A stretch of DNA of 64,000 nucleotides from Oscillospiraceae bacterium (lineage in GTDB: Bacteria; Bacillota; Clostridia; Oscillospirales; Oscillospiraceae), in the NCBI GenBank assembly GCA_020025175.1, contig JAHHSM010000002.1, positions 6,984 through 70,983 on the forward strand, written 5' to 3'. The notes beneath the pieces were generated by a model, which had not been told where the DNA came from, ran no database searches, and saw only the letters and a program-made list of their open reading frames with translations. Below are positions 3,776 to 47,385 of this stretch, piece by piece. Every line of letters begins with the position of its first letter. Position 1 is the first letter of the stretch. Both the position numbers and the translations under genes were made by a program.

Positions 3776-3776
3776 T

Positions 3777-4992: not shown

Positions 4993-5059
4993 ACGCAATG
5001 GTATCATTTTTAAACTGCTGCCTTTGACAGCACATGCAGCAGATCAAAACGCCCTTTTA

Positions 5060-5911: not shown

Positions 5912-5922
5912 CTTCTAAATGT

Positions 5923-7743: not shown

Positions 7744-7802
7744 ATCGTCTGTTTTTTCTCCCTTCGCCAGGTGACCCTGTCTTTCTTTATATTGACGGCG
7801 CT

Positions 7803-8586: not shown

Positions 8587-8592
8587 CCCATA

Positions 8593-8892: not shown

Positions 8893-8940
8893 AAACTTAA
8901 GGCTTACCTCAGTTTATGAAGGGATTGTATCATTTATGCC

Positions 8941-9189: not shown

Positions 9190-9192
9190 AGT

Positions 9193-9468: not shown

Positions 9469-9484
9469 ATTCTTTTCCTCCTAT

Positions 9485-32515: not shown

Positions 32516-32544
32516 GCATAATCCATGTCTTTTTCTCATAGACT
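32516..32544 (+). promoter_or_regulatory. Candidate sigma-E-type promoter of spoIIID
   Basis: GCATAAT-N14-CATAGACT compared with the Bacillus sigma-E consensus kmATATT-N14-CATACAhT. It lies about 30 nt upstream of the spoIIID start. Confidence 0.35.
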
Positions 32545-32574: not shown

Positions 32575-32703
32575 TTGAAAGGAAACATCGAGGAGCGTGC
32601 GATTACGCTTGCTCAATACATTATAGAGAATCGGGCCACTGTCCGCGCCGCCGCTAAACAATTCGGCATCAGTAAGTCTACCGTACATATGGTAATATAT
32701 TAA
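32575..32703 (+). pseudogene. spoIIID: spoIIID 5' segment (codons 1-38 plus 4 element-derived codons and a stop)
   Basis: The TTG start gives MKGNIEERAITLAQYIIENRATVRAAAKQFGISKSTVH, which aligns with B. subtilis SpoIIID residues 1-38 (..KERTIKIGKYIVETKKTVRVIAKEFGVSKSTVH). It then continues MVIY* and is broken inside the HTH recognition helix. Confidence 0.9.
32678..32689. repeat. attL core (CTACCGTACATA)
   Basis: The 12-bp sequence is identical to 47048..47059 and lies exactly at the point where SpoIIID similarity stops. Confidence 0.85.
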
Positions 32704-32770
32704 TGGAACGGTTTAATTGCAAGCTCACCCAGTTATTTTTCAGATTGTGAAGAATCTTATATTGTTCAAC

Positions 32771-32814
32771 AAGACTCACTGCCGAAGACCACCGGCAGTG
32801 AGTCTTTCTTTTTT
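32771..32814 (+). terminator. Rho-independent terminator just inside the left end of the element
   Basis: 14-bp stem AAGACTCACTGCCG/CGGCAGTGAGTCTT followed by a T-run. It would terminate the truncated spoIIID transcript and, in a circularised element, the recombinase gene. Confidence 0.8.
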
Positions 32815-32857
32815 ACTAAAATAATCAATCGGCGTGATTGCAAAACTCAAATATAAA

Positions 32858-32886
32858 TTGATTTTCAAGACAGCTCATAATATAAT
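32858..32886 (+). promoter_or_regulatory. Sigma-A-type promoter for the XRE-hsdMSR operon
   Basis: TTGATT-N17-TATAAT, 48 nt upstream of the XRE start. Confidence 0.55.
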
Positions 32887-32933
32887 CAATATGGATACAA
32901 ATATGCGTTCAGAAACCAAGCAGGAGGTATAAA

Positions 32934-33158
32934 ATGGCTGTCTGCTATAACAAATTATGGAAAATTTTAATTGATAAACATATGAGCAAAACGCAGCTGA
33001 TCAAGGAAGCAAAAATCAGTACCAATGCCATGGCACGATTAGGAAAAAATGAGGATGTTCGTGTGGAGGTACTTGTAAAAATTTGCAGTGTTTTGGGATG
33101 TACAATAGATGATATTATGGAAATCATTCCAGAAAAAAAGGAGAATGGAAATGGCTGA
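32934..33158 (+). CDS. XRE/Cro-type helix-turn-helix protein (possible controller of the RM operon)
   Basis: 74 aa with the [48 protein letters not shown]. Its 3' end overlaps the hsdM start by 8 nt. Confidence 0.8.
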
Positions 33159-34713
33159 TATAAAGAAAGAGCAGGAACGGGACGAGCTGCACCGTGCGAT
33201 TTGGGCAATTGCTGACGAATTGCGTGGCAGCATTGATGGCTGGGATTTTAAGTCCTATGTGCTGGGCATGATGTTTTACCGCTACATCTCGGAGAACCTG
33301 ACCAACTATCTGAACGCCGACGAGATGGAGGCCGGTAACGAGGACTTCAACTACGCCGATCTCTCTGATGAGGATGCGGAGATGGCCCGTGAGGACATGG
33401 TGCAGACCAAGGGCTTTTTCATTCTTCCCTCTGAGCTTTTCTGCAATGTGCGGAAAAATGCCGCCCACGACGAAAATCTGAATATGACGCTGGAAGCTGC
33501 GTTCCGCCATATTGAGGAATCCGCAAAGGGCAGCGAGAGCGAGGATAACTTCTCCGGTCTGTTCGATGATATTGATGTGAACAGCAACAAGCTGGGTGCG
33601 ACCGTTGCCAAGCGCAACGCCAAGTTGGTCAAGCTGATGGACGGCGTGGCTGACATGAGACTGGGCAACTATCAGGACAACAGCATTGACGCCTTCGGTG
33701 ATGCCTATGAATATCTCATGGGTATGTACGCCTCCAATGCAGGCAAGTCCGGCGGCGAGTTCTTCACTCCGCAGGAGGTGTCTGAGCTGTTGACTCGGAT
33801 TGCCGTGGTGGGCAAAACGGAAGTCAACAAGGTTTATGACCCTGCTTGCGGTTCCGGCTCTCTGCTGCTGCAAGCTGCCAAGATTCTGGGAAAGGAGAAT
33901 GTGCGTCAGGGCTTCTTTGGTCAGGAGATCAACTTGACTACTTACAACCTGTGCCGAATCAATATGTTCCTCCATGATATTGGCTATGATAAATTTGACA
34001 TTGCCCATGAGGATACCCTGATGACCCCCCAGCACTGGGATGATGAACCCTTCGAGGTCATCGTTTCCAATCCTCCGTATTCCATTAAGTGGGAGGGCGA
34101 TGATAACCCGGTGCTCATCAACGATCCCCGTTTCTCTCCTGCCGGAGTACTTGCGCCGAAATCGAAAGCCGATCTTGCATTTATCATGCACGCTTTGGCA
34201 TGGCTGGCGACCAACGGCACCGCCTCCATCGTCTGCTTCCCCGGCATCATGTACCGTGGCGGTGCAGAAAAGAAGATCCGCCAGTATCTCATTGATAACA
34301 ACTTCATCGACTGCGTGATCCAGCTGCCCGGCAACCTGTTCTATGGCACCTCCATCGCTACCTGCATCATGGTGCTGAAAAAGAACAAGCAGGACAACAG
34401 CACCCTGTTCATCGACGCCTCCAGGGAGTTTGTGAAGGTCACAAACAACAATAAGCTGACCGAGGAAAACATCAGCAAGATCGTGGCTGAATTTGCGTCA
34501 CGGGAGGATGTGGACTACTTTGCCCGCTGTGTTTCTTGGGACGAGATCAAAGAACAGGACTATAACCTGTCCGTCAGCACCTATGTGGAGCAGGAGGACA
34601 CACGGGAAGTCATTGATATTACGAAACTCAACGCTGAGATTAAGGACATCGTTGCCCGTGAGCAGATTCTGCGAGATGAGATTGATAAGATCGTGGCAGA
34701 AATCGAGGGCTGA
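33151..34713 (+). CDS. hsdM: Type I restriction-modification system, N6-adenine DNA methyltransferase subunit
   Basis: HsdM N-terminal domain ([14 protein letters not shown]), AdoMet motif [11 protein letters not shown] and catalytic VSNPPYS. The ATG lies 7 nt after AAAAAGGAGA. Confidence 0.92.
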
Positions 34714-34716
34714 GAT

Positions 34717-35877
34717 ATGAGCAGATTAGAAGAACTGATTCAGGAGCTTTGCCCCGATGGGGTGGAATATAAGAACTTAGAGAACATTTTGACAATAAAA
34801 AATGGAAGAGATTACAAGCATCTAACAGAAGGTGTTGTTCCCGTCTATGGTTCTGGTGGAATTATGACATATGTTAATCAAGCGATATATGATAAACCGT
34901 CTGTGCTTATTCCTCGAAAAGGGTCTCTTGATAAACTATACTATGTAGATGTTCCATTTTGGAATGTCGATACCATATTTTACACAGATATCAACCTAAC
35001 TGTTGCCTTGCCTAAATATGTTTATTATTATTTGCAAAGTCAACATCTAGAACGGCTTAATAAAGCCGGAGGAGTCCCCAGCCTTACACAAGCTGTGCTA
35101 AACAAGGTTAAAATTCCCGTTCCCCCTCTGCCTGTACAGGCTGAAATTGTCCGTATTTTGGACAATTTCACGGAACTGACGGCGGAACTGACGGCGGAAC
35201 TGACGGCGAGAAAGAAGCAGTATGAGTATTATAGGGATAAACTGCTAACCGTTGATAACAATGTTGAACATGTTACTATTGGTGATGTTGCAACTGTAAC
35301 AAAATTGGCGGGATTTGAATTTACCAAATATGTAAAATATACAGAGACTGGAAATATTATAGCCTTAAGAGGATTGAATGTTAAAGCTGGAAAACTTGAT
35401 TTGATGGATGTGAAATATATTGATGGTAGCGATTTATCTAAATTAACTAGAAGCAAACTTCATGTCGGTGACATGCTGTTTACTTATGTGGGTACCATCG
35501 GTCAAGTTGCACTTGTTGACGAAGAAGATAAATACTATTTAGCTCCCAATGTTGCGCTTATTCGCTCTACTGACGAGCAACTTTTGCCTCAATTTATGAG
35601 ATATTATTTTCAGAGTGGGGAGTTCTGGAAAACACAGATAAACCGTCTGTTACAATCGTCCTCTATGCAGAATATACCTATGGAGAAAATTCGGAAATTT
35701 ATTATCCCCCTCCCCCCTCTTTCTGAGCAAGAACGCATTGTCTCCATCCTCGACCGCTTCGACACCCTTTGCAATGACCTGACTTCCGGTCTGCCTGCCG
35801 AAATCGAAGCCCGCCAGAAGCAATACGAATACTACCGAGACAAGCTGCTGAGCTTTCAGGAGGTGAAAGGCTCATGA
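34717..35877 (+). CDS. hsdS: Type I RM specificity subunit (type IC-like)
   Basis: Two target-recognition domains are separated by conserved helices that repeat RKKQYEYYRDKLL / RQKQYEYYRDKLL. The central region is ELTAELTAELTA. Confidence 0.92.
   Translation: MSRLEELIQELCPDGVEYKNLENILTIKNGRDYKHLTEGVVPVYGSGGIMTYVNQAIYDKPSVLIPRKGSLDKLYYVDVPFWNVDTIFYTDINLTVALPKYVYYYLQSQHLERLNKAGGVPSLTQAVLNKVKIPVPPLPVQAEIVRILDNFTELTAELTAELTARKKQYEYYRDKLLTVDNNVEHVTIGDVATVTKLAGFEFTKYVKYTETGNIIALRGLNVKAGKLDLMDVKYIDGSDLSKLTRSKLHVGDMLFTYVGTIGQVALVDEEDKYYLAPNVALIRSTDEQLLPQFMRYYFQSGEFWKTQINRLLQSSSMQNIPMEKIRKFIIPLPPLSEQERIVSILDRFDTLCNDLTSGLPAEIEARQKQYEYYRDKLLSFQEVKGS
35171..35206 (+). repeat. Perfect 3 x 12-bp tandem repeat (CGGAACTGACGG) in the hsdS central conserved region
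   Basis: Read directly from the sequence. It encodes T(ELTA)3, the TAEL-type spacer of type IC HsdS. Confidence 0.95.
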
Positions 35878-38800
35878 GTACCTACAACATCGTGCTTTCT
35901 ACCAGTGAAAGCACCGTCGTAACTGAATATGAACCCCAGACCAAGCGCTCCGATGCATACCAGAGCGAGGCGGCGTTGGAATCTGCCTTCATCAAAATGC
36001 TGACCGAGCAGGGCTATGAGCATATCACCATTCATGATGAAGCAGGTCTGGTAGAGAATCTCCGTCGACAGCTGGAACGGCTCAATCAGTTTCGCTTTAC
36101 GGACAAGGAGTGGGACCGTTTTTTCAAGGATAAGATTGCCAATCAGAACGAAGGTATCGTTGAAAAGACCCGTAAAATGCAGGAGGATCATGTCCAGAAC
36201 CTGATTCGGGAGGACGGTACCACCATGAACATCTCCCTGATTGACAAGAAAAACATCCACAACAACCGCTTGCAGGTCATCAATCAGTATGAGATGGGAC
36301 AAGCAGAGGGCGCCAAGTACGACAACCGCTATGATGTGACCATCCTGGTCAACGGTCTGCCCCTTGTCCATGTGGAGCTGAAACGCCGTGGCGTGGCTCT
36401 GAAAGAGGCTTTCAACCAGATCAACCGCTATCAGCGGGACAGCTTCTGGGCCGGGTCTGGGCTCTATGAGTATGTCCAGATCTTCGTGATCTCCAACGGT
36501 ACCCACACCAAATATTATTCTAATACCACCCGGTTCAGCCACATCAAGGAGAACGAAGGTAGCCAACGCAGCCGCAGCAAAAAGACATCCAACAGCTTTG
36601 AGTTCACCAGCTTCTGGGCGGACGCAAACAACCATACTATTCCTGATCTTGTGGACTTCACCAAGACTTTTTTTGCCAAACACACCCTGCTGAACATCCT
36701 GACAAGGTACTGCGTATTCACCTCTGAGGAACTGCTGCTGGTCATGCGACCCTATCAGATTGTAGCGACTGAGCGAATTCTGAACCGCATTGAGGTATCC
36801 ACCAACTACAAAAAGATGGGTACGCTGGAAGCCGGTGGCTACATCTGGCACACCACCGGCAGCGGCAAGACCCTGACCTCTTTTAAGACGGCCCAGCTTG
36901 CCACCAGACTGCCCTACATCGACAAGGTGCTGTTCGTGGTGGACCGTAAGGATCTGGACTACCAGACCATCAAGGAATACGATCGCTTTGAAAAGGGGGC
37001 AGCCAACGGAAACAAGAGCACGGCGGTCTTGCAGCGTCAGCTGGAGGACACCACCTCGAAGATCATCGTGACCACCATCCAGAAGTTGGATGTGTTCATC
37101 ACCAAGAATCCCCAGCATCCCATTCGGGACAAGCACATTGTTCTGGTGTTTGATGAATGTCACCGCAGCCAGTTCGGAGATATGCACAGCCGTATTGTGG
37201 GCGGCATCATCAAAAAAGGCGAAAAGGTTATCAAGGTGGATCGTTACTTCAAGAACTACCATATTTTCGGCTTCACCGGAACCCCGATTTTCTCCGTCAA
37301 TGCCGGCACCGGGCGCAACCCAAACCTTCGGACCACCGCCCAGGCCTTTGGTGATAAGCTCCATACTTACACGATTGTGGATGCGATCAACGACGGAAAT
37401 GTGCTGCCCTTCCGCATCGACTACATTGATACGGTGAAGCAGAAGGATGGTCGAAAGGATAAGCAGGTAAAGGGCATCGACACGGAAGAAGCTCTGTCTG
37501 CACCGGAGCGGATCACAGAAGTTTCCAAGTATATTCTGGAACACTTCAACCAAAAGACCGTCCGTAATTCTTATTACAGCCTCAAGGGTCAGCGGGTAAA
37601 CGGATTCAACTCCATGTTTGCTGTTAGCTCCATCCCTGTATGCAAGAAATATTATCTGGAACTGAAAAAGCAGATTGCCGAACAGCACCGAGATCTGACC
37701 ATTGCCACGATTTTCTCCTTTGCTCCCAACGAGGAGGACAGTGCAGACGGCATTCTGGACAACGAGAGCTTTGACACGGACGGTTTGGATCAGAACTCCC
37801 GTGACTTTTTGGAAATGGCCATTGATGATTACAACAAGAAGTTTAAGGCCAACTTCGACACCTCCAGCAAGGGCTTTCAGGACTATTACAAGGATCTCTC
37901 GGACAAGGTGAAAAAGCGCCAGGTAGATCTGTTAATCGTGGTCAATATGTTCCTCACCGGCTTCGACGCTACCACTCTCAATACTCTGTGGGTTGATAAA
38001 AACTTGAAAATGCACGGCTTGATTCAGGCGTTTTCCAGAACGAACCGCATTCTGAACTCCGTCAAGACCTTTGGCAATATCGTCTGTTTCCGCAATCTGG
38101 AACAGGAAACCAATGATGCCATTGCTCTGTTCGGTGACAAGGATGCAAATGGTATTGTTCTCCTCAAATCTTATGAGGATTATTACTTTGGCTGCACCGA
38201 TGATAAAGGCAGAGATTTACCAGGCTATGAGGATCGAGTGGAAGAACTGCTGCATCGTTTCCCTTTGGGTCAGCCCATCATTGGCGAGCAGAACGAAAAG
38301 GATTTCATTGTCCTATTCGGCAATATCCTTCGCCTCCGCAATATCCTGTCAGCCTTTGACCGCTTTGCTGGGAATGAGCTTCTGGCACCCATTGACTTCC
38401 AGGACTACACCGGTATGTATCATGACCTCCATGAGAAATACAAGCGTCCCGATGGTGAGAAAGACAGTATTCTGGACGACGTTGTCTTTGAAATGGAGCT
38501 GGTCAGGCAGGTAGAGGTCAACATCGACTACATTCTCATGCTGGTGGCCAAGTATCACGATGGCAACTGTGAGGACAAGGAAATTCTGGTGGCAATCGAT
38601 AAGGCGATCAAGTCCAGCTTGCAGCTTCGCTCTAAAAAGGAACTCATTGAGCACTTCATTGATACCATCAATACCAGTACGGACGTCAATTCCGATTGGG
38701 CCAAATTCGTCCGTGAGCAGCGAGAAACAGATATTGCAGAGCTGATTCAGACCGAGAAGCTGAAGCCGGAAGAAACCAGAAAATTTGTGGATAACGCTTT

Positions 38801-38978
38801 CCGTGATGGTGTTCTGAAAACCACGGGAACTGATGTAGATCAGATCTTGCCGCCTGTCTCCCGTTTCAGCGGTGGTGGTAAGCGAGTGCAAAAGAAGCAG
38901 ACCGTCATTGAAAAGCTGAAAGCATTTTTTGAGAAGTATTTTGGACTGCTAAGTACGGATGACCGGATTATAAAATAA
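35874..38978 (+). CDS. hsdR: Type I restriction enzyme R subunit (endonuclease/translocase)
   Basis: 1034 aa with SF2 helicase motifs (TTGSGKTLTS, VFDECHRSQFG) and a size typical of type IC HsdR. The ATGA overlap with hsdS indicates coupling. Confidence 0.92.
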   Translation: MSTYNIVLSTSESTVVTEYEPQTKRSDAYQSEAALESAFIKMLTEQGYEHITIHDEAGLVENLRRQLERLNQFRFTDKEWDRFFKDKIANQNEGIVEKTRKMQEDHVQNLIREDGTTMNISLIDKKNIHNNRLQVINQYEMGQAEGAKYDNRYDVTILVNGLPLVHVELKRRGVALKEAFNQINRYQRDSFWAGSGLYEYVQIFVISNGTHTKYYSNTTRFSHIKENEGSQRSRSKKTSNSFEFTSFWADANNHTIPDLVDFTKTFFAKHTLLNILTRYCVFTSEELLLVMRPYQIVATERILNRIEVSTNYKKMGTLEAGGYIWHTTGSGKTLTSFKTAQLATRLPYIDKVLFVVDRKDLDYQTIKEYDRFEKGAANGNKSTAVLQRQLEDTTSKIIVTTIQKLDVFITKNPQHPIRDKHIVLVFDECHRSQFGDMHSRIVGGIIKKGEKVIKVDRYFKNYHIFGFTGTPIFSVNAGTGRNPNLRTTAQAFGDKLHTYTIVDAINDGNVLPFRIDYIDTVKQKDGRKDKQVKGIDTEEALSAPERITEVSKYILEHFNQKTVRNSYYSLKGQRVNGFNSMFAVSSIPVCKKYYLELKKQIAEQHRDLTIATIFSFAPNEEDSADGILDNESFDTDGLDQNSRDFLEMAIDDYNKKFKANFDTSSKGFQDYYKDLSDKVKKRQVDLLIVVNMFLTGFDATTLNTLWVDKNLKMHGLIQAFSRTNRILNSVKTFGNIVCFRNLEQETNDAIALFGDKDANGIVLLKSYEDYYFGCTDDKGRDLPGYEDRVEELLHRFPLGQPIIGEQNEKDFIVLFGNILRLRNILSAFDRFAGNELLAPIDFQDYTGMYHDLHEKYKRPDGEKDSILDDVVFEMELVRQVEVNIDYILMLVAKYHDGNCEDKEILVAIDKAIKSSLQLRSKKELIEHFIDTINTSTDVNSDWAKFVREQRETDIAELIQTEKLKPEETRKFVDNAFRDGVLKTTGTDVDQILPPVSRFSGGGKRVQKKQTVIEKLKAFFEKYFGLLSTDDRIIK

Positions 38979-38985
38979 CTGTAAT

Positions 38986-39132
38986 CTATACACAGACTCT
39001 ACTGCACCCAATCTTTGCCTCATACACAGCTGCATGATTCTCATAGACCACAAACATATCTACAGGAAGGTTTGTCTCTGTACTTTTAAAGACAGGCTCT
39101 TCATAGAAGAATTCATCCACATTGATATTCAT
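38986..39132 (-). CDS. Hypothetical small protein (48 aa)
   Basis: ORF MNINVDEFFYEEPVF... preceded by AAAGGAA. No recognisable family; it may be a gene fragment. Confidence 0.25.
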   Translation of the reverse strand: MNINVDEFFYEEPVFKSTETNLPVDMFVVYENHAAVYEAKIGCSRVCV

Positions 39133-39342
39133 TTTTTTAATTCCTTTCAATACGATATTTGAAAGCAAAAAAGCGCAGTACAGGTCATACTCCTATACTA
39201 CGCGAGAATATCATAGTCCATTGTTGCGCCAAGCATCGAAAAAGCGTATATTAATCCTGTCGGCGCGGGGAATCCCGTTGTATAGATAGAAAGCTTAACC
39301 TCAATAAATAGATACATTCGGAAAAATGGGTCACATCCAGAG

Positions 39343-39371
39343 TTGACAGCATATTCAATGCGTGGTATTAT
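39343..39371 (+). promoter_or_regulatory. Strong sigma-A-type promoter
   Basis: TTGACA-N17-TATTAT. Confidence 0.55.
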
Positions 39372-39377
39372 CCCCCA

Positions 39378-39461
39378 TAAATTACGAAGTATGATTAACC
39401 AAACGAAGACATTTGCGAAAAAGACAGTTATTCCATTTCATGGGTATAACTGTCTTTTTTT
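39378..39461 (+). ncRNA. Candidate small RNA or attenuated leader (about 85 nt)
   Basis: The near-consensus promoter is followed within about 45 nt by a terminator, AGACAGTTAT-loop-ATAACTGTCT plus T7. Only a weakly initiated ORF lies inside. Confidence 0.3.
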
Positions 39462-39548
39462 ATATTTATATTTTCATATCCCCGCGCTCCATCGCTGGAA
39501 AATTATTTAAATCGAATTTTCTGATTTTTAATATAGGAGGTGATGTGT

Positions 39549-39653
39549 ATGCTGTATTTTTTAATTTTTTCTTATAATGTTTTTAATCAGCATACTTGTC
39601 CTTTGATGTACGCCTCTAGCGATGAGATTCCAAGCTGTATAAGCGTTGGTTGA
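39549..39653 (+). CDS. Possible 34-aa upstream peptide coupled to the HTH gene
   Basis: The ATG lies 6 nt after AGGAGGTGA. The product is MLYFLIFSYNVFNQHTCPLMYASSDEIPSCISVG. Its stop TGA lies 1 nt before the ATG of the next gene. Confidence 0.25.
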   Translation: MLYFLIFSYNVFNQHTCPLMYASSDEIPSCISVG

Positions 39654-39654
39654 T

Positions 39655-40038
39655 ATGTGTAATTCTGAGCGTAATAGCTCTCGCTCAAAAGTAGGAAGTA
39701 TAGATATTGTGGAAGAACCTCTGAATTTTCAGAAGGTATTTTTCAAGAAGGTAACGGAGAAACGTAAGGAACTAAACATCTTTCAAGAAGAACTTGCACA
39801 ACGTGCCGAGGTATCTGTAGATACTATCAAGCGCTATGAGCGTGATGTGGCAAAAAATATCTACTTTAATACAGCTTGCCGCATTGCTGCAGCGTTGAAG
39901 ATAGCCTTGGGATCTTGGCTTCCAGCAGCTTATTTCGAAAATCCTGTTTTAATTAATTATGCTATTCAGCATTTAGAATCAATTTCTACAGATGTTCATA
40001 AAATGCGTGAGCTTTTGGAAAATGAAGTGGAAAGATAA
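39655..40038 (+). CDS. XRE-family helix-turn-helix regulator
   Basis: HTH segment RKELNIFQEELAQRAEVSVDTIKRYERDV. About 127 aa. Confidence 0.7.
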   Translation: MCNSERNSSRSKVGSIDIVEEPLNFQKVFFKKVTEKRKELNIFQEELAQRAEVSVDTIKRYERDVAKNIYFNTACRIAAALKIALGSWLPAAYFENPVLINYAIQHLESISTDVHKMRELLENEVER

Positions 40039-40195
40039 TTTTTTTCAATAAATAGTGAAAGGGTTACACTTTAAGGTGTAACCTCTTCACTGGTGCAGTG
40101 TATCATTTGAGATTATACTGAGAGTAGATCATGATCAGAATGGCTGTGGGTCGATCATCCCACAACAATTTTATCAAATTTAAGGAGGAAAACTC

Positions 40196-40514
40196 TATGA
40201 AACTGAATGAACTTATTATTGACCCTAAGAGCCTGGGCAACAAGCTTTGGCTTGTGGATGTAGGTCTTGCTTATGTGTATGCCAATGGACAGCGCACGGA
40301 TGCTATCTCCGGTTATCGCTATACCATCGCCCTTCCTGAAAAGGGTCTGGATAAAATTAATATCAAGATTGACGGCGATCAGCGGATGGATTCGCCTAAT
40401 GGATATACGGAGGTTCGTTTTGATGGACTTGAGGTGTTTTTGCAGTGATCTCGCGGCGATTACATTGTTGCGGGTCGTGCCACAGGCATCCATTCTGTAA
40501 ACAGTAAAAATTAA
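40196..40514 (+). pseudogene. Conjugative-element small protein (DUF961-like, tentative) with an in-frame TGA
   Basis: The ATG follows AAGGAGGAA. The 83-aa ORF ends at the TGA at 40446..40448, but the same frame continues for 21 sense codons (SRGDYIVAGRATGIHSVNSKN*) to 40514. Confidence 0.4.
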
Positions 40515-40520
40515 TGCATG

Positions 40521-40579
40521 GGCGGCGGTGGCGGCAGCGCCGCCGTTGCCATAAGGGTTAGTATTACCCTTATGGCAAC
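40521..40579. other. Two adjacent strong hairpins (possible oriT/sso-like site or terminator)
   Basis: The first is GGCGGCG-N10-CGCCGCC (40521..40544). The second is a perfect 14-bp stem GTTGCCATAAGGGT-TAGTATT-ACCCTTATGGCAAC (40545..40579). They are followed by a direct ATGTAGC ATGTAGC repeat. Confidence 0.4.
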
Positions 40580-40612
40580 CATGTAGCATGTAGCACAACA
40601 AAGGAGGTTATT

Positions 40613-41016
40613 ATGAATAATAATGCGATCTTCCGTCCGAAAAGGAGGAAGAGGCACCAGAAATGTTCAAGCTTATTCAAAATCTCCGGGCAGGTGAACC
40701 CATTATGGAGATTTTAGAGGAAAATCCTAAGCTGGCATTTAAAATCCGTGATATCGAGGTGTTGCGCCAAACGATTTTAGCAGAGAAGTACAGTGTGGAA
40801 CTCCGGCATGTGGATGTGAGCTATATTTACGGAAGCACCGGAACGGGCAAGACCTGGGGTATCTTCAAGCAGAATGAGGCCAAAGAAATTTTCCGCATTA
40901 CCAACTATAACGGAGGAAACGGTGTCCGCTTTGATGCTTATCACTGTCAGGATATTCTGGTGTTTGAGGAATTTCATGGGCAGATTCCCATTGCGGATAT
41001 GCTGAATTATTTGTAG
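40613..41016 (+). pseudogene. Fragmented replication/SF3-helicase-like P-loop protein
   Basis: An RBS-led ATG at 40613 opens a 33-codon frame. A second frame (40663..41016) encodes Walker A GSTGTGKT and a Walker B-like ILVFEEF and stops abruptly. This pattern fits a frameshifted and truncated Rep-type gene. Confidence 0.4.
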
Positions 41017-41048
41017 TTCTGGGAACTCCCTCAAACAGTGCGGTAACT

Positions 41049-41859
41049 AGAGAGGAACTGCTGAAAACAGGGCTTGTAAACAACGCAGGAGAAGTCCCCG
41101 TTCTGATTTCTAAGAAAAACGATCCGGAAAATTCCAGATTGATGATTTTAGAATTTGATCCTTGCGGAATACCACTGAGCGAATGGGAAGATAAGCAAGC
41201 ACACATCGAGGCTGCATTGAATATTACCATTGCAAAGATATTCTGGCGTAACGGGAAGAAAATCATTTGCGTTTATGCTGTCCCTGCAAAGGATGACTTT
41301 GCAGAAATACTCCCTTGGAAAGAAGAATATCTTTCTTCGCGGAACTTTACATTAGTGCTTGGTGAAAGCATGATCGGAACTGTAACTGTCAGTCTGACAC
41401 GCACCCCGCATATCTTGTTGGGCGGCTCTGCCGGCAGTGGGAAAAGTGTGCTGCTGAAATTGATGCTGATGCAGGCGTTGAAAAAGGGTGCAAATGTATA
41501 TATTGCGGATTTTAAGGGAGGTGTGGATTTTCCACCTATTTGGCATCAAAAATGCCGGATGTGCTTTGAGGAGCAGGATTTGCTGGATCTGCTGAGCAAA
41601 CTTGCAGACGAATTGCAGCATTGCAAGGAATTGTTTAGCATGATCGGATGCCAATATTCTGCCGGGTCAAATCAAGAACAATATGGATTGCTGCATCTGC
41701 GGCAGGGCGGATAACGTGCTGTCCCGGATCATTCTGGACAATACCGCTGCTGCAGATATGATCCCCAAAGATACCAGCGGACGATTTCTCCTTCAGGATG
41801 GAACAATATTTCGGGCCTATTGGTTTGAGGAATCCACACTACGGACAGGCCACAGCTAA
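41049..41859 (+). pseudogene. FtsK/SpoIIIE-family conjugative DNA translocase remnant (Tn916 orf21-like)
   Basis: Walker A LLGGSAGSGKSVLL and ADFKGGVDF are present. The N-terminal TM region is absent. The frame breaks at 41712, and the conserved C-terminal piece (DTSGRFLLQDGTIFRAYWF) continues in the +1 frame to 41859. The central ATPase part is missing. Confidence 0.7.
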
Positions 41860-41945
41860 TGGTCCTCAGCTATTTTACCAAGATAGGCATATCTGTGCAT
41901 CCTGCATCATAGGATAAAACACAGAACAGGGAGGTGGTCAAGCCA

Positions 41946-42146
41946 TTGAAAAAAGTAAAACTGAATTATCGGTTTCACAATCCGAATACGGTGGAGACCA
42001 CCGCCGATTACATAGCGAAGATTTTTGTAGAGTCAAATCGCAGAAAAGTGGAATCTCTTCTGAGCCATCATCAAACTGTCCAAAAAGAATCCATACAAAA
42101 AGAGGATCCTGCGCTTGTACATACGCCGGATAAGGAAGTCATTTAG
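41946..42146 (+). CDS. Small hypothetical protein of the kind common in Firmicute integrative elements
   Basis: The TTG start follows GGGAGG. The product is (M)KKVKLNYRFHNPNTVETTADYIAKIFVE.... I cannot name the family. Confidence 0.35.
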   Translation: MKKVKLNYRFHNPNTVETTADYIAKIFVESNRRKVESLLSHHQTVQKESIQKEDPALVHTPDKEVI

Positions 42147-42285
42147 AAAACACGAAAATGTTTCATCCGGCAATGCAAGGCGATACAAAAAAGAATTCCC
42201 AGAAAGGTTCAAATCAGAATAAACTTAACAGTCAGGCTCTGAGAGGACACTCAGGGTCTTTGTTTATCAAATTTTGAAAAGCATC

Positions 42286-42337
42286 TTGACTGCCGAGAAC
42301 TACAGATGTAGTATATGTGTAGATACTACAGATGTAG
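42286..42337 (+). promoter_or_regulatory. Promoter with two BlaI/MecI-type operator dyads
   Basis: Promoter TTGACT-N17-TAGTAT. The dyad CTACAGATGTAG (TACA/TGTA half-sites) occurs twice, at 42300..42311 and 42326..42337, overlapping the -10 region and the leader. Confidence 0.55.
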
Positions 42338-42348
42338 GAGGCGACGAG

Positions 42349-42711
42349 ATGAAGTTATCCGAAAGAGAATGGACGGTTCTGGATGCCCTCTGGAAAACGG
42401 GAGAAGCAGAACTGGGAGCGATCGTAGAGATGCTCCTGCCTGCTACAGGCTGGAACCGCAACACTGTCCTGACATACCTGACCCGCATGGAAGCCAAAGG
42501 ATTGGTGACCATTAAAAAAGATGCAGCACCCCACAGGTATCTGGCCAGCCTGAATCGAGAAGACTGTCAGGCGCAGGCTCGTCAGAGTTTTTTGAAGCGG
42601 GTGTACAGAGGTTCTGCCAGCGATATGATTGCAGCATTTCTCAAGGAAGAGCCCATATCACAAGAGGATCGGGATCATCTGCGGAAGCTGCTGGATGAAA
42701 TGGAGGTGTAA
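42349..42711 (+). CDS. BlaI/MecI/CopY-family transcriptional repressor
   Basis: Winged-helix product MKLSEREWTVLDALW...GWNRNTVLTYLTRMEAKGLV. Confidence 0.85.
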   Translation: MKLSEREWTVLDALWKTGEAELGAIVEMLLPATGWNRNTVLTYLTRMEAKGLVTIKKDAAPHRYLASLNREDCQAQARQSFLKRVYRGSASDMIAAFLKEEPISQEDRDHLRKLLDEMEV

Positions 42712-42714
42712 TCT

Positions 42715-44643
42715 ATGAGAGATATATGGGCATTTCTCATAGTCACGCTGACTGTCTCGGGTGTTGCTGCGGTTTTGCTGATTGTGAAATGGCTTCTGAA
42801 GGATAAGCTTTCTCCCAGATGGCAGTTTTCTGCGTGGCTGGTGGTATTGCTGGCAGCTTTGATTCCGGTTGGCAGCAGGTATATTCTTTTTGATTGGCCG
42901 CTGGTGGTGGAAGCAGTCAAATCCCTGCTAACCGGGGATTATGCCGTAACCAAAATCCTTGCATCGGTCCCCATGCTGCCGGAAGCTGCCCCCAGCAGTG
43001 CAGCAGATTGGATTTTTGTGATTTATTTTGCAGGTGCAGTTCTGCTGTTTGCCCACTATGTTTTTTCCTATGTCAGACTTCGCTTTTTCCTGAAAAAAGG
43101 GGAAACGCCAGCGGATGCCATTAAGACGCAAATAAAACAGGTAGAGGAAACATATGGACTTCAATGCTGCAAAGCAGTCATGGTTCCAAATCTTGAATCT
43201 GCATTTGTCTGCGGATTGTTTCGCCCAATTCTGGTCCTGCCGGAGGATCGGGACACCAATGAAAAAGTTTTGCTCCATGAGATGCTGCACTTAAAATACT
43301 GGGATGTGACCTGGGGCTGGGTGATTTGCCTGTTTCGCTGTATCCATTGGTGCAATCCATTCCTTTGGTACTGTGCCAATCGGGTGGGCAATGATCTGGA
43401 ATCGCTCTGCGATCAGCGTGTGCTGGAACGGCTGGAGGGCGAACAGCGGAGGGAATACGGACGGATTCTGCTTTCTATGGCCAACGAAAAATATGCCCGG
43501 GCTCCGGGTACTTCTTCTGCAGCCAATGGCGGAAAAAATATCCGTCAACGCATTGAAGCAATTGCCCGGTTTAAACGGTATCCCGAGGGCATGACGCTGG
43601 TTTCCGTCTGTGTTCTGATTGTACTGATGAATCCCATAGCCTATGGATGGGATGCGAGAAGCTTGGAGTACCATGGTGCGATTCAGATGCAATCTGCCCT
43701 TGCGGCGGCCCGTTTGACAGACTGCACCACCCTTGCAGGCGCGGCGGACTGCTATGGAAAAGCGCTGCTGCGCAATGAGCGCGTTTACCGCATTCTCTGC
43801 GCAAACGATCAGGAGCGGGAAGAGATCGCCGCGGAAATGGTACGGCGATCGCAACAAGACATGCCGCCCCGCTGGGACAGCGGCATGCCTAAATCTCTCG
43901 ATCCCTCAGAAGGCTACTTTGTCTATAATCTGCAGCAAAAGAGTCAGGAGCACTATGAAGCGCTCATGGCATTCCATTCCGGAGATCCAACGCAGACGAA
44001 AGAAACGATGGTCATTTATTCCCAAAAGGTTGCTTTCCGAAAAGAGAACGGAAGATGGATTACAGAACCTTTGGAGGAAATGCACCGTCTGGAGCTGACG
44101 GACGTAAACCTGCGCTGGAATTGCAGGGCACTGCCTGCCTACAGACTCGTGGCAGAGGCAGAGGACTTCCGGCTGACGCTGAACTTTCAGAAGAATTTTG
44201 AGGTAGACAATTGGGTGCAATCCTCCGAAAACGGGCCTATTTTTTCTGCCAGTACTCACTTTAATCTGCAGCCGGATCCAAATGCAGAATTTGATGCTGT
44301 CTATCAATTCAGCTGGGCGACCCTTACTTATGTGGGAGAAGATATGGACGCTGTCCATCAGGTGGGAATATCCTATGCTCCCTGGCCCGAAAATCAGGAG
44401 CGGCCGCAGCTGAATGCTCCCGGAGCAGAAACCGGTGCGTGTAGCAGCAGCGATGGCGCTTGCTGGGCCAATGAAATATTACAGAAAGGACGCGATCCGG
44501 TCATAGATCTGGGCGGAGGCGGATACAACGGACCTTTTGATGCTTCGAGTCTGACCATGCCGCAGCGCTATGCTGCAGACCTTTACATTAACGGAAAACT
44601 GGCTGCACAGTTGACCGTCTTACCGGAGGAGGAAGGAATATGA
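42715..44643 (+). CDS. BlaR1/MecR1-like M56 metalloprotease sensor with an unrecognised extracellular domain
   Basis: N-terminal TM helices and the zinc motif LLHEMLHLKYWD. A further TM helix (MTLVSVCVLIVLM) is followed by about 330 aa with no penicillin-binding SxxK/KTG motifs. Confidence 0.8.
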   Translation: MRDIWAFLIVTLTVSGVAAVLLIVKWLLKDKLSPRWQFSAWLVVLLAALIPVGSRYILFDWPLVVEAVKSLLTGDYAVTKILASVPMLPEAAPSSAADWIFVIYFAGAVLLFAHYVFSYVRLRFFLKKGETPADAIKTQIKQVEETYGLQCCKAVMVPNLESAFVCGLFRPILVLPEDRDTNEKVLLHEMLHLKYWDVTWGWVICLFRCIHWCNPFLWYCANRVGNDLESLCDQRVLERLEGEQRREYGRILLSMANEKYARAPGTSSAANGGKNIRQRIEAIARFKRYPEGMTLVSVCVLIVLMNPIAYGWDARSLEYHGAIQMQSALAAARLTDCTTLAGAADCYGKALLRNERVYRILCANDQEREEIAAEMVRRSQQDMPPRWDSGMPKSLDPSEGYFVYNLQQKSQEHYEALMAFHSGDPTQTKETMVIYSQKVAFRKENGRWITEPLEEMHRLELTDVNLRWNCRALPAYRLVAEAEDFRLTLNFQKNFEVDNWVQSSENGPIFSASTHFNLQPDPNAEFDAVYQFSWATLTYVGEDMDAVHQVGISYAPWPENQERPQLNAPGAETGACSSSDGACWANEILQKGRDPVIDLGGGGYNGPFDASSLTMPQRYAADLYINGKLAAQLTVLPEEEGI

Positions 44644-45212
44644 GCGAAAGAGAAAAACTCTATACCGGCGTGTCCAGAGCGGCATGGGGCTGCTTCTTTC
44701 TGTACTTGAATGTAAACCTTAACAGCATCAATCTTCTGCCGAATTTCGTTGGCTATCTGCTGTTCCTGTCTGCAATTTCCCTTCTCAAGGAGCAGGTCAG
44801 AGACCTCGGACTGCTGCGCCCCCTTGGCATCTTGCTGGTAGTCTGGACGGCGGCAGAATGGGCGCTGACCATCATGGGGATTCCGCTGGGAGCGGTTGCA
44901 CCTGTGCTCGCTCTCATTGTGGCGGCAATCAGCCTGTATTTCATTTTTCAGCTGTTTACAGACCTGGCGGTTCTGGCAAAAACCTATCAGAACCAGTGGG
45001 AGAACTACGATCAGAAGCTCATCAAATGGCGTACTGTCCAGGTGCTTTTGAGTATGTTCCTGTATCTGCCGATTCTCAGATGGGCAGTGGGAACGGATTG
45101 GGAACTGTGGATTGCAATTCCTCTGGTAGTCGTCAGCTTCATCACCGGCATCCGGCTGATGACCCTGCTCTTTTCCATGCGCAAATTATTTGCTGCCAAG
45201 CAAACGGAATAG
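44640..45212 (+). CDS. Integral membrane protein, unknown function (coupled to the M56 gene)
   Basis: An ATGA start/stop overlap links it to the upstream gene. 190 aa with about 5 TM helices. Confidence 0.5.
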   Translation: MSEREKLYTGVSRAAWGCFFLYLNVNLNSINLLPNFVGYLLFLSAISLLKEQVRDLGLLRPLGILLVVWTAAEWALTIMGIPLGAVAPVLALIVAAISLYFIFQLFTDLAVLAKTYQNQWENYDQKLIKWRTVQVLLSMFLYLPILRWAVGTDWELWIAIPLVVVSFITGIRLMTLLFSMRKLFAAKQTE

Positions 45213-45305
45213 TGCTGTGATCCGTGGATGTTTCGCTGGTGCCGGGATCTGAAAAATACGATCCGCAATGTGGTGCTTGAAACTCTTGCTGTGCAGGCAA
45301 TCGAA

Positions 45306-45346
45306 GGTACGGTGCAGCCCCTCTTTTGGGCTGCACCGTACCTTTT
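45306..45346 (+). terminator. Rho-independent terminator
   Basis: 15-bp stem GGTACGGTGCAGCCC/GGGCTGCACCGTACC followed by TTTT. Confidence 0.75.
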
Positions 45347-45398
45347 CAAAAACTTTCTTATGAGGGGCAGGCTTTTGCGGAATCCTCGTTTGTATCCC

Positions 45399-45427
45399 TT
45401 GCAAGTTGATTTCTAGTTTTATATAAT
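45399..45427 (+). promoter_or_regulatory. Sigma-A-type promoter of the recombinase gene
   Basis: TTGCAA-N17-TATAAT, about 40 nt upstream of the GTG start. Confidence 0.5.
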
Positions 45428-45468
45428 AGATATACAAGAGCGATTTGGACATGTCAGGGGGTATTTTT

Positions 45469-47217
45469 GTGAAAATTGCCGCATATTGCCGTGTATCTAC
45501 CGAAAAAGAAGACCAGTTGAATAGTCTTGAAGCGCAAAAGAAATTTTTTCAAGAGTACACTGTGCGCACCGGCGATACTTTGGTGCGCCTATATGCAGAC
45601 GAAGGAATTTCCGGCACCAAAACCAAAAACCGGAAAGAATTTTTGCACTTAATGCGGGATGCCGAGCACAACCTCTTTGATATGGTGGTGGTCAAAGACA
45701 TTTCTCGCTTTGCCAGAAATACCGTTGATTTGCTTCAAAATGTGCGGAAATTAAAAGCCTTAGGGATTGAAACCCTGTTCCTTACGGCTAATATGACATC
45801 GATGGGCAACAGTGAGTTTGTCCTGACCATCTTCGGCGCACTTGCGCAGGAAGAAAGCGCCAACACCTCCAAACGCGTAAAGTTCGGGAAAAAAATAAAC
45901 GCAGAAAAAGGTCGTGTTCCAAACATTGTGTATGGCTATAACAAAACTGCCGGGGATTACTTCCGTTTGACGATCAATGAAGAAGAGGCCGCTGTCATCC
46001 GGCAGATTTATCAGTGGTATATCGAAGAAGGGTATGGCACTGCCAAAATTGCCATCATGCTCAACGAGCGCGGGCTGAAAACCAAGCGAAACTGCAACTG
46101 GAACGCAAACGGTGTGGCTAGAATTCTAACCAATGAACTGTATACGGGCAAAATCATTAACGGAAAAGAAGAAGTAAGTGATTTTCTCACCGGCACTCGC
46201 ATAGAAAAAAGCGCTGATGAATGGTTGGTGACTGATCGATCAGAACTGCAGATTATTGACCCCGAAGTTCAGAATCAAGCAAGAGAGATTATGCAGTCTC
46301 GCGGAAACAGTTTCAAACTGGATCGGAAACGAGAGAGCAATAAATATCTTTTCTCTACCCTGATCAAATGCAAAGAGTGCGGATGGTCTTTCCGCCGCAC
46401 AGTCCGCACCTACAAAAATACCTATATCCGCTGGGTCTGCTCCGGCCACAACGGTCGGGGCGCCGATAGCTGCCCCAATGCAATTGCTGTGGACGAGAAC
46501 GAGCTGATTGCGGTTTTGGAGGCATACTTTGCCAATATTTTAAAAGCAAAGAAAAATATCATTCGCTATGTCGTCGGCGAATTCAACCGTACCTATAAGG
46601 CGAAAAGCGAAAATAGATCATACGAAAAAGAACTTCGGGACAAGCTGTCCAAGATGGAAAAGACCCGCCAGAAATACATGGATATGTATACGGATGATCT
46701 GATTTCCCGTGAGGAACTGAACACTAAAATCGGTTGGATGCGTAAAGAAATGGAGCACATGGAAAATGATCTGCATCTGATCGAATTAAACATCGAGAAA
46801 AGCGACCAGCTGGAAGAATTGATTCAATGCACATTTTCCACCATCGAAACTATTGCAGATGTACGCACTATGAGCAATGCGCAGCTGAAAAAAATTATTA
46901 AAAAAATTGAAGTGGATAAAGATGGGAATGTCGATATCTATCTCCGGCTGCTGGGTGATTTAGGCTTAGATGACGAAGTTTTGGTGCAGCTGAACAATGA
47001 TGTGATAAATTTGGATCAGGCCGCCGGAGAAGCGTTCGATTTATCCACTACCGTACATAAAGATCTTTCTGATCGCTTACCGAAATTTAATCGCACGCTC
47101 TATTTGCAGGTGAAGGAAGTGCTGGATGTCAACAAGGCACAGCGCCATATTCGAGGTGGGCTGGCCACGAAGGAAAAATATCTCCATCAGGCACAGGAAG
47201 CTGCCCGGCATCGCTAA
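45469..47217 (+). CDS. Large serine recombinase, fused in frame across attR to the SpoIIID C-terminal 52 aa
   Basis: Resolvase domain VKIAAYCRVSTEKEDQLNSLEAQ...VVVKDISRFARN, a recombinase domain, the zinc ribbon CKECGW...WVCSGH and a coiled coil. There is no stop before 47217. The last 52 aa, KDLSDRLP...RHIRGGLATKEKY, are SpoIIID sequence. GTG start after AGGGGG; the longest-ORF start is 45445. Confidence 0.9.
   Translation: MKIAAYCRVSTEKEDQLNSLEAQKKFFQEYTVRTGDTLVRLYADEGISGTKTKNRKEFLHLMRDAEHNLFDMVVVKDISRFARNTVDLLQNVRKLKALGIETLFLTANMTSMGNSEFVLTIFGALAQEESANTSKRVKFGKKINAEKGRVPNIVYGYNKTAGDYFRLTINEEEAAVIRQIYQWYIEEGYGTAKIAIMLNERGLKTKRNCNWNANGVARILTNELYTGKIINGKEEVSDFLTGTRIEKSADEWLVTDRSELQIIDPEVQNQAREIMQSRGNSFKLDRKRESNKYLFSTLIKCKECGWSFRRTVRTYKNTYIRWVCSGHNGRGADSCPNAIAVDENELIAVLEAYFANILKAKKNIIRYVVGEFNRTYKAKSENRSYEKELRDKLSKMEKTRQKYMDMYTDDLISREELNTKIGWMRKEMEHMENDLHLIELNIEKSDQLEELIQCTFSTIETIADVRTMSNAQLKKIIKKIEVDKDGNVDIYLRLLGDLGLDDEVLVQLNNDVINLDQAAGEAFDLSTTVHKDLSDRLPKFNRTLYLQVKEVLDVNKAQRHIRGGLATKEKYLHQAQEAARHR
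47048..47059. repeat. attR core (CTACCGTACATA)
   Basis: Identical to 32678..32689. SpoIIID similarity resumes immediately after it. Confidence 0.85.
47060..47217 (+). pseudogene. spoIIID: spoIIID 3' segment (codons 39-90)
   Basis: KDLSDRLPKFNRTLYLQVKEVLDVNKAQRHIRGGLATKEKYLHQAQEAARHR* aligns with B. subtilis KDLTERLPEINPDLANEVKEILDYHKSIRHLRGGEATKLKY. It is in frame with the 5' segment once the element is removed. Confidence 0.9.
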
Positions 47218-47261
47218 AAAACGTGGGAACCTGTTTTTCTGTACAGATTCCCACGTTTTTC
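47216..47261 (+). terminator. Native spoIIID terminator
   Basis: ACGTGGGAA-loop-TTCCCACGT followed by T5, directly after the TAA. Confidence 0.7.
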
Positions 47262-47385
47262 GGTTTTCGCTATTTTGACTGCAACGGCGCACAACAGGTG
47301 CACTTGCCATTTGGCAAAATCACTTTTGTCGAAGGAAGGAGCTTTCTGTTTTTGCTGCCACAGATCTGTATATGCTTTTTCTATC

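Follow-up and report, generated by a model that had tools for sequence, protein, structure and literature searches.

When a mobile element lies within a sporulation gene, is the gene lost, or can it be rebuilt when the cell needs it? This question is raised by spoIIID in a 64,000-nucleotide stretch of DNA from an Oscillospiraceae bacterium (hereafter the window; positions 6,984 to 70,983 of contig JAHHSM010000002.1, assembly GCA_020025175.1). In the mother-cell line, SpoIIID is the earliest dedicated transcription factor, and it is needed for sigK expression and for skin excision in both Bacillus subtilis and Clostridioides difficile. A first-pass annotation of the window had reported that a serine-recombinase element splits spoIIID in such a way that the gene can be reconstituted exactly, and had read the arrangement as skin-like. 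We find that the insert splits spoIIID at His38, that exact excision would restore the gene in frame, and that the element is a further sporulation-gene intervening element, part of a spoIIID-specific family that is widespread yet essentially undescribed. We consider it plausible that the element is excised during sporulation, which is the best supported of the readings weighed below.

The two parts of spoIIID can be rejoined exactly

The two parts of spoIIID are bounded by copies of a 12-mer, CTACCGTACATA. The window contains two exact copies of it and no more, at 32678-32689 and 14,370 bp downstream at 47048-47059 (chance expectation, 0.06), and none with one mismatch. The identity between the two sites ends at 12 bases, with no extension. 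On the left, an open reading frame (ORF) with a TTG start at 32575 encodes LKGNIEERAITLAQYIIENRATVRAAAKQFGISKSTVH, 38 residues that end in ...GISKSTVH, and then continues inside the insert as MVIY followed by a stop codon; on the right, the sequence encodes KDLSDRLP...RHIRGGLATKEKY.... When 32575-32689 is joined to 47060-47217, the product is an in-frame protein of 90 amino acids (aa) that matches Pfam family PF12116 (SpoIIID) with E=9e-39 over model positions 2-81 of 82. The closest intact SpoIIID in the database (P0121, 90 aa, locus L002) is ~94% identical to the joined product (95.5% by tblastn).

The joined DNA is also colinear across the junction with the uninterrupted spoIIID locus of this relative (L002), with 81-87% identity and a run of 51 identical bases over the promoter -10 box, the ribosome binding site and the first codons; the -35 box is conserved too. 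The predicted empty-site (attB) junction of the window reads ...GGCATCAGTAAGTCTACCGTACATAAAGATCTTTCTGATCG..., and the predicted circle (attP) junction reads ...TTCGATTTATCCACTACCGTACATATGGTAATATATTAATGG.... The terminator hairpin that closes the gene was missed by a terminator scan, probably owing to a mismatch in the stem, and was read by eye.

Three of the features by which a skin-like element is recognised are present: a mother-cell gene that keeps its own promoter, together with 38 codons, 5' of the insert; short end repeats whose deletion restores the frame exactly; and an intact site-specific recombinase gene of the element's own (45469-47059, with three Pfam domains). On the 38-residue N-terminal ORF, the pair of repeats, the 90-aa product, the candidate sigma-E promoter, the separate terminator and the full-length recombinase at the right end, the first-pass annotation was borne out. 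Its skin-like reading holds for the split-gene architecture, the exact reconstitution and the serine-recombinase mechanism, and is supported in silico by a promoter layout like those of skinCd and SPβ, but no excision product of this strain was found in the assemblies searched.

A large serine recombinase and its attachment sites

The recombinase at the right end of the insert has the catalytic Resolvase (1-144 of 145), Recombinase (1-102 of 102) and Zn_ribbon_recom (1-54 of 58) domains that characterise a large serine recombinase (LSR), as well as the motif AAYCRVST. Among solved structures, its catalytic domain best matches the N-domain of a C. difficile conjugative-transposon recombinase (3G13) and TnpX, and its closest solved or characterised relatives, the 3G13 N-domain and phage integrases, are at most 55% identical.

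We compared attL with attR in 17 complete elements and found a shared core of (T)ACATA, which is reduced to CA in two loci; this CA, with which the His38 codon begins, is likely the crossover dinucleotide. As reconstructed, attP overlaps the 3' end of the recombinase gene and forms an imperfect palindrome, both arms of which read TATGGTmGTnACwAAwTAGAACGGTT outward from CA. attB, in contrast, is the coding sequence around spoIIID His38 (...ACN GTN CA/Y AAR GAY..., with the slash after CA), and its right half, TAAGGAcGTnACnGAnCG, has the inner motif as in attP and the outer motif 4 bp nearer to the centre. These are the attributes of LSR sites: a palindromic attP, a distinct attB, a central dinucleotide and an outer motif that lies farther out in attP, a shift that is a structural hallmark of attP relative to attB. 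Moreover, five IMG/VR contigs of 36-119 kb (L089, L093-L096) have an intact, unintegrated attP that overlaps the recombinase stop codon.

Judged by its genes and its ends, the insert is a non-phage integrative element of an LSR family with its attB at spoIIID His38. As the sites are drawn here, integration proceeds through the palindromic attP, with crossover at CA, and leaves behind a promoter-bearing stub of 38 codons and a 3' part of 52 codons.

The recombinase ORF of the window crosses attR in frame into the spoIIID 3' half, and public gene calls accordingly list a 588-aa recombinase-SpoIIID fusion (P0001). We considered that such a fusion might be a general functional feature, and rejected this, as the two are in frame in only 3 of 77 representative loci. 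Because of this low count, and because most family recombinases end at the core after 511 aa with a TAA created at the junction, the fusion in the window is incidental.

The C-terminus of the recombinase varies with integration. In most integrated copies it ends at attR, after 511 aa (ACA/TAA; L013, L064 and L074 compared), whereas at unintegrated attP (L089, L093, L094) the same ORF is 12-17 residues longer (523-528 aa). The window recombinase (47048-47217) differs in that it is fused in frame to 52 SpoIIID residues.

In nearly all loci the recombinase has a canonical promoter of the sigma-A type (TTGCAA or TTTACA, a 17-bp spacer and TATAAT, often with TG). At a fixed distance 3' of this promoter, 32 of 51 loci carry the sequence GTAAC[AG]GAA[CT]G, which lies 36-40 nt 5' of the start codon in 31 of these 32. 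The sequence is rare (48 occurrences in 2.7 Mb of locus sequence) and is the attB right half-site, corresponding to the spoIIID codons KDVTER in Lachnospiraceae. Its placement suggests a predicted autoregulatory site to which the recombinase would bind.

A conserved small gene with a predicted promoter of the mother-cell type

The LSR gene and a small gene are the only genes common to the family elements. The small gene (~45-67 aa across the family, with KLNYRFHNPN...A.YILK...EAN..KVE) has a homologue on the locus of the recombinase in 74 of 80 genome loci and in 8 of 8 viral contigs, in addition to the window. It lies on the same strand as the recombinase and 5' of it in nearly all loci; it is inverted in 2, and a second recombinase copy is found 5' of it in 3. 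This linkage and the promoter of the gene make its product a candidate recombination directionality factor (RDF).

From the host spoIIID, spoIIP and yabP promoters we derived the pattern [GT]CATA..N14CATA[AG]..T and scanned both strands of the 64-kb window. There were only four matches, compared with an expected 0.11: the spoIIID, spoIIP and yabP promoters and that of the small gene. Across the family, the consensus of the small-gene promoter is GgACTATTTT-N10-ttTTCATAGatATGGAcAAag, which is of the CATA class; its two boxes are conserved at 76-100%, while the spacer is unconstrained (~35%). In C. difficile, sigma-E and sigma-K promoters have in common a CATA-type -10 box, and the -35 element contains ATA (sigma-E) or AC (sigma-K) (PMC3789822). 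The predicted sigma-E assignment of the small-gene promoter is well supported in the window and moderately supported in the family as a whole. As far as its architecture goes, the predicted recombination unit combines a recombinase under a sigma-A-type promoter with a small gene that has its own sigma-E-type promoter and terminator.

In most family members, GGACAAAG lies just 3' of the -10 box of the small-gene promoter, and this sequence resembles the SpoIIID box known from B. subtilis. The same motif, as ATGGACAAAGG, is found 3' of a sigma-E-type promoter in the host spoIIP leader (window ~1230-1260, minus strand). The motif may be the SpoIIID box of these organisms; that SpoIIID would repress the small gene through it is speculative.

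A mobile family that inserts repeatedly into spoIIID

We scanned one genome per GTDB species with the recombinase, which yielded at least 367 relatives, and analysed the best 80 loci. In 77 of these 80 loci the spoIIID 3' half lies directly 3' of the recombinase, and all but a few of the 77 retain the His-Lys-Asp junction. Relatives include both an uninterrupted spoIIID (L002) and elements of the same family at the same codon, which bears on the search that the first-pass annotation had proposed; beyond what it described, the element is not a one-off but a member of a large mobile family, and its recombinase ORF is continuous with the 3' half of spoIIID. When the window recombinase was used in a protein search, it likewise returned dozens of relatives that are 69-81% identical to it and whose precomputed Pfam domains include SpoIIID. 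The hosts are Oscillospiraceae, Lachnospiraceae and their relatives, and the cultured carriers include Solibaculum, Pseudoflavonifractor, Angelakisella, Flavonifractor, several Blautia, Schaedlerella arabinosiphila, Laedolimicola and one complete Lachnospiraceae chromosome. A literature search on sporulation of S. arabinosiphila gave only papers with titles on other subjects.

In 17 loci the whole element could be delimited, because the spoIIID 5' half is found on the same strand, 4.1-10.9 kb upstream. All 77 of the 3' halves keep the RH[IL]RGG motif in an open frame, all 17 of the 5' halves align without stop codons, and CATA-type promoters are visible 5' of ~15 of the 17. Many family members span only 4-6 kb and have no transfer genes, yet have the small gene and its CATA-type promoter.

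Comparison of recombinases with their flanks points to frequent transfer. Blautia aquisgranensis and B. fusiformis have recombinase DNA that is 99.5% identical but neighbouring host DNA that is 73.7% identical, and in other pairs of loci recombinases that are 95-98% identical have flanks that are dissimilar or unrelated. Because near-identical recombinases occur in hosts with diverged flanks, the family is, on sequence grounds, horizontally mobile and repeatedly re-integrates into spoIIID. For the same reason we rejected the idea that the family as a whole is an ancient, vertically inherited (domesticated) element, although three pairs, L046/L059, L055/L056 and L033/L039, look vertically inherited, with species-level divergence. 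Eight relatives are found in IMG/VR, and one of these viral contigs, L090, is integrated in spoIIID.

Some relatives have other neighbours. The recombinase relatives P0065-P0081 (76-79% identical) are fused to or adjoin other genes (e.g., DUF362, PF04015) or GC-rich sequence that is not spoIIID. The L005 site that is not spoIIID (11516-11560) is from Christensenella, which to our knowledge is not a spore-forming genus. Relatives outside spoIIID represent sister clades that have different targets, or else the use of secondary sites.

We had considered that the family might share a single mobilisable-element backbone. In no other locus, however, did the FtsK, Rep and HTH genes from L017 and the window have a match at E<1e-5, and we therefore replaced this idea by that of a portable recombination unit of two genes. 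The cargo sits mainly in the slot between the terminator of the small gene and the recombinase promoter and consists mostly of defence genes: AAA_21 with RloB, Schlafen/AlbA_2 with HATPase_c_4, AIPR, a Wadjet-like four-gene set and type I restriction-modification (R-M).

Two arrangements within the family are unusual. Three loci have one or two extra serine recombinase genes besides the one at attR (L054, 3490-5931; L068, 3486-5351; L082, 683-2548 and 3140-3601), and these spoIIID elements recall the gin element with its three recombinases. In L072, from Candidatus Faeciplasma pullistercoris, two near-identical spoIIID 3' halves (2223-2381 and 4864-5037) are separated by 2.6 kb that contain an ABC-transporter gene on the other strand, and the recombinase precedes the first copy. 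Tandem accretion may account for the duplication, as may imprecise excision followed by re-integration.

Anatomy of the element in the window

All ORFs assigned to the insert are on the plus strand, in the same direction as spoIIID (Table 1). A strong intrinsic terminator just inside attL would stop read-through from the spoIIID promoter. The type I R-M genes that follow match N6_Mtase/HsdM_N, Methylase_S and HSDR_N/ResIII/EcoR124_C in Pfam, and the cargo between the small gene and the recombinase was recognised by Penicillinase_R and Peptidase_M56.

Table 1. Features of the spoIIID locus and its intervening element (positions in the window unless a locus is named)
Feature	Position	Strand	Basis or remark
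spoIIID promoter, sigma-E type, GCATAAT-N14-CATAGACT	32516-32544	+	12/13 against ZHATAxx-N14-CATACAHT
spoIIID 5' part, codons 1-38 (TTG start to His38)	32575-32689	+	stub ORF runs on as MVIY-stop to 32703
attL core, 12-mer CTACCGTACATA	32678-32689	+	probable crossover dinucleotide CA of the His38 codon, 32686-32687
Intervening element, 14,370 bp counting one repeat copy	32690-47059	+	repeat, join and Pfam analysis
Element-side right arm of attP, TGGTAATATATTAATGGAACGGTT	32690-32713	+	matches family half-site consensus TATGGTmGTnACwAAwTAGAACGGTT
Strong intrinsic terminator just inside attL	32771-32806	+	14-bp stem, T tract
Type I R-M cargo	33109-38978	+	hsdM 33109-34713, hsdS 34717-35877, hsdR 35874-38978
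Cro/C1-type helix-turn-helix (HTH) regulator gene	39646-40038	+	Pfam HTH_3; PHROG transcriptional regulator or repressor
Truncated FtsK/SpoIIIE-type gene, 191 aa	41139-41714	+	Pfam FtsK_SpoIIIE, partial (14-137 of 221)
Small-gene promoter, sigma-E type, GCATATC-N14-CATAGGAT	41887-41915	+	host-derived pattern; 11/13 against the B. subtilis sigma-E consensus
Conserved small gene, 67 aa (LKKVKLNYRFHNPN...), candidate RDF	41946-42146	+	linkage and promoter
Terminator closing the small-gene transcription unit	42234-42259	+	terminator scan
Cargo between small gene and recombinase	42274-42711; 42715-44643; 44640-45212	+	blaI-type repressor; BlaR1/M56 sensor-protease; membrane protein
Recombinase promoter, sigma-A type, TTGCAA-17-TATAAT	45399-45427 (with box, 45399-45446)	+	followed by degenerate attB-half-site-like box AGATATACAAGAGCGATTT
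LSR, element-encoded part	45469-47059	+	GTG start taken from family alignment; ORF in frame to 47217
attR core, 12-mer CTACCGTACATA	47048-47059	+	probable crossover CA 47056-47057; element-side left arm ~47020-47047
spoIIID 3' part, 52 codons (KDLSDRLP...RHIRGGLATKEKY...)	47060-47217	+	stop at 47215-47217
spoIIID terminator hairpin, CGTGGGAACCTGT...ACAGATTCCCACG then TTTTT	~47220-47262	+	read by eye from the sequence
Defence cargo	L057 4252-6205; L059 7217-9886; L060 6417-9972; L015 ~3356-9938; window 33109-38978		

Between hsdR and the HTH gene, the G+C content dips sharply to 0.37 (39000-40000). This dip, which contains the insert's strongest sigma-70-like promoter (TTGACA-17-TGnTATTAT, 39343-39371), is probably a mosaic joint between the cargo and a remnant backbone.

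The insert looks like a decayed integrative element, neither a prophage nor an intact mobilisable element. Among the insert ORFs scanned with Pfam and PHROG, there were no phage structural, packaging or lysis domains. Of the relaxase and coupling protein that mark an integrative mobilisable or conjugative element, the window retains only the 191-aa FtsK fragment, likely a remnant of a transfer module, whereas relatives L017 and L009 have relaxase and coupling genes; L017 has a 438-aa FtsK as well as Rep_trans. Rep_trans was detected in the window neither with the L017 protein as query (tblastn, E<1e-5) nor by Pfam among the scanned insert ORFs. From its gene content, the window element appears to be no longer self-mobilisable.

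Proposed excision during sporulation and its alternatives

We lean slightly toward developmental excision of the element from spoIIID, on the strength of its sequence and of analogy with known elements. The recombinase would be present both in vegetative cells and in the forespore, with attL x attR recombination blocked. In the mother cell, the product of the small gene would act as directionality factor, the element would leave as a circle, and spoIIID would be rebuilt under its own sigma-E promoter, after which the mother-cell cascade would run from SpoIIID to sigma-K. The spore chromosome would retain the element with its defence and resistance cargo, and SpoIIID would then turn the small gene off through the GGACAAAG box near its -10 box. 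The RDF function of the small protein, the timing in the mother cell and the feedback are parts of this scheme that we infer. With a sigma-A-type promoter for the recombinase and a sigma-E-type promoter for the small gene, excision would need sigma-E only and not SpoIIID, which answers the concern of the first-pass annotation that an element within spoIIID could not rely on SpoIIID for its own excision. The host sporulation genes that it had listed (spoIIP, yabP and yabQ) are intact in the window, as is a SpoVB-like gene (Polysacc_synt/MurJ domains).

A broader proposal, to which we give a little less than even weight, is that mobile defence islands make spoIIID a sporulation checkpoint, one step ahead of sigK, in a large share of the gut Lachnospiraceae and Oscillospiraceae, through a self-limiting circuit that would run from sigma-E to the RDF, to excision and to SpoIIID, and that would be spread horizontally as a two-gene module of phages and minimal islands. 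Here, sigma-E would induce a new small directionality factor, and the constitutive recombinase would excise the island in the mother cell; SpoIIID, made only after excision, would repress the promoter of the factor via GGACAAAG, and the island with its anti-phage cargo would pass through the spore.

Several observations weigh against excision during sporulation. The protein collection that we searched contains no reconstituted SpoIIID with 100% identity (best, 94%) and no circular-form recombinase of the window strain, only the integrated form. A scan of metagenome contigs for the attP junction ACRACCATACATATRGTWGTRAY yielded 6 matches, none of them near a recombinase, small gene or spoIIID, in a collection that seems poor in gut data; we ascribe these matches to chance. 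The small protein has no detectable similarity to a known RDF or an annotated family (it has no Pfam match, and PHROGs gave just a weak match to a family of unknown function), and excision by some LSRs of the transposon type (TnpX, TndX) requires no RDF. The family promoters score on average 9.75 of 13 against the strict B. subtilis sigma-E consensus, compared with 8.6 of 13 for a background of random windows; this consensus discriminates weakly, and therefore we relied on the conservation pattern for the family and on the host-derived pattern for the window. Furthermore, the -35 box of the family small-gene promoters is ACTATT, not CATATT, and therefore sigma-K or another factor may act there. 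Members at sites other than spoIIID (L005, L019, L045) have the same recombination unit and promoter. Finally, transfer between species has been recent, and intact gene halves could mean that the insertions are young; with transfer so frequent and recent, intact halves alone are no proof of selection.

A rival view is that spoIIID has simply been inactivated. If so, the conserved HTH coding sequence of spoIIID would merely be a reliable attB; SpoIIID and efficient sporulation would have been lost, with no developmental programme, and carriers would tolerate the loss since sporulation is dispensable in the gut or the cargo compensates. The near identity of the recombinases in the two Blautia species and in the other pairs implies that many insertions are recent, and recent insertions need no selection to have intact halves. 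Inactivation would also fit with the lack of an excision product in the assemblies searched, with the immediate benefit that defence and resistance cargo could give, and with the presence of the recombination unit at non-sporulation sites. However, degradation is seen in none of the 77 3' halves and none of the 17 5' halves, including those of the three pairs that look vertically inherited, and neighbouring sporulation genes are intact. Moreover, inactivation leaves unexplained why the sole conserved accessory gene has a promoter of the mother-cell type, unlike the sigma-A promoter of the recombinase. An independent spoIIID element is found in Ruminiclostridium cellulolyticum H10, which is a listed spore former (Galperin et al.), and the experimentally studied elements of such architecture in mother-cell genes are all excised during sporulation (PMC5595907, PMC4191935, PMC5025042). 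We consider plain inactivation unlikely.

We find it more improbable still that the element is excised outside development, either stochastically or on a transfer or stress signal, such that spoIIID would be restored in a subpopulation as a by-product, in the manner of a phase-variation-like, bet-hedging switch. Horizontal transfer is evident, the recombinase promoter is vegetative, and some relatives have a Rep_trans relaxase and FtsK-type coupling genes (L017, L009) while others are on the 36-119-kb viral contigs with a free attP, all of which would fit such a switch. The window element, in contrast, has lost its transfer functions, and the many 4-6 kb members without transfer genes retain the small gene and its CATA-type promoter; stochastic loss from the germ line would rapidly purge elements that cannot be transmitted.

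If excision during sporulation is correct, acquired DNA would gate the mother-cell programme earlier than in any studied case, through sigma-E alone, and the inheritance of a defence island would be linked to the spore germ line. The family is very common in gut commensals and carries mostly defence or resistance cargo. Automated annotation will misleadingly report that carriers have no spoIIID or do not sporulate. In practical terms, the family offers a defined set of LSR, attP and attB with many natural variants, a candidate new RDF family and several cultured carriers.

Relationship to known intervening elements

In papers by Abe and colleagues, the genes listed as interrupted are sigK, spoVFB, spoVR, spsM and gerE (PMC4191935, PMC5595907), and a 2023 paper adds yabG. 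The first-pass annotation had supposed spoIIID to be an undescribed target, which does not hold: Galperin et al. (2022; bioRxiv 10.1101/2022.02.25.481979) recorded skin-like elements in cotJC of Laceyella and in spoIIID of R. cellulolyticum H10. Theirs is the only note of spoIIID as an integration target that we found in the literature searched, where we found no report of this spoIIID family, its prevalence in gut Clostridia, its att sites, its two-gene unit or its promoters. The H10 element (64.7 kb, with the 511-aa serine recombinase Ccel_3111; Galperin et al., Table S3) interrupts the same gene at apparently the same place, leaving a 5' fragment of 126 nt (~42 codons) and a 3' fragment of 144 nt. 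It is 4.5 times larger than the window element and is compared here by its published description. Its recombinase is at the left end, on the opposite strand and ~108 bp from the 5' fragment, whereas that of the window is at the right end, co-oriented, with attP over its stop codon. The H10 element was given as a tabulated genomic note, without analysis of family, promoters or att sites and without experiment.

The small units of cargo with a recombinase at one end recall TnpX (Tn4451) and TndX (Tn5397), and TnpX is among the best structure matches of the catalytic domain. TnpX and TndX work without an RDF, and their target sites are loosely defined around a central GA dinucleotide. The window family, in contrast, has a specific attB of ~50 bp in one gene, a CA crossover and a conserved partner gene.

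SPβ, which interrupts spsM of B. subtilis, has an LSR, SprA, and a small RDF, SprB (PMC4191935). There, the sigma-E/K promoter of the RDF leads to excision in the mother cell while the element is kept in the spore genome, and the recombination unit can be exchanged between elements (PMC4191935, PMC6957869). The target of SPβ is a late spore-envelope gene and not a regulator, and sprB also has a stress-inducible promoter. SPβ is moreover an active phage of 134 kb, unlike the window element. A small, non-prophage element in a short HTH gene for a mother-cell regulator is provided by gin, in gerE of Bacillus cereus ATCC 10987, which is excised during sporulation (PMC5595907); gin differs in having three genes for recombinases (girA, girB and girC), in targeting the last regulator of the cascade and in belonging to the Bacilli.

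The skinCd element in sigK of C. difficile uses a constitutive sigma-A recombinase, CD1231, and a 72-aa, sigma-E-dependent orphan RDF, CD1234, which is needed for excision (PMC5025042). Like the window element, it is ~14 kb in size and not phage-like, has an LSR under sigma-A and a separate small sigma-E gene (a candidate in the window element), and allows a mother-cell regulator gene to be reconstituted exactly in frame, which in the window is deduced from the sequence. The two recombinases are only distantly related, and the small protein of the window has no detectable similarity to anything annotated. The window element also targets spoIIID, one step upstream of sigK, and whereas CD1234 also needs SpoIIID, such a requirement would be impossible for an element that interrupts spoIIID itself.

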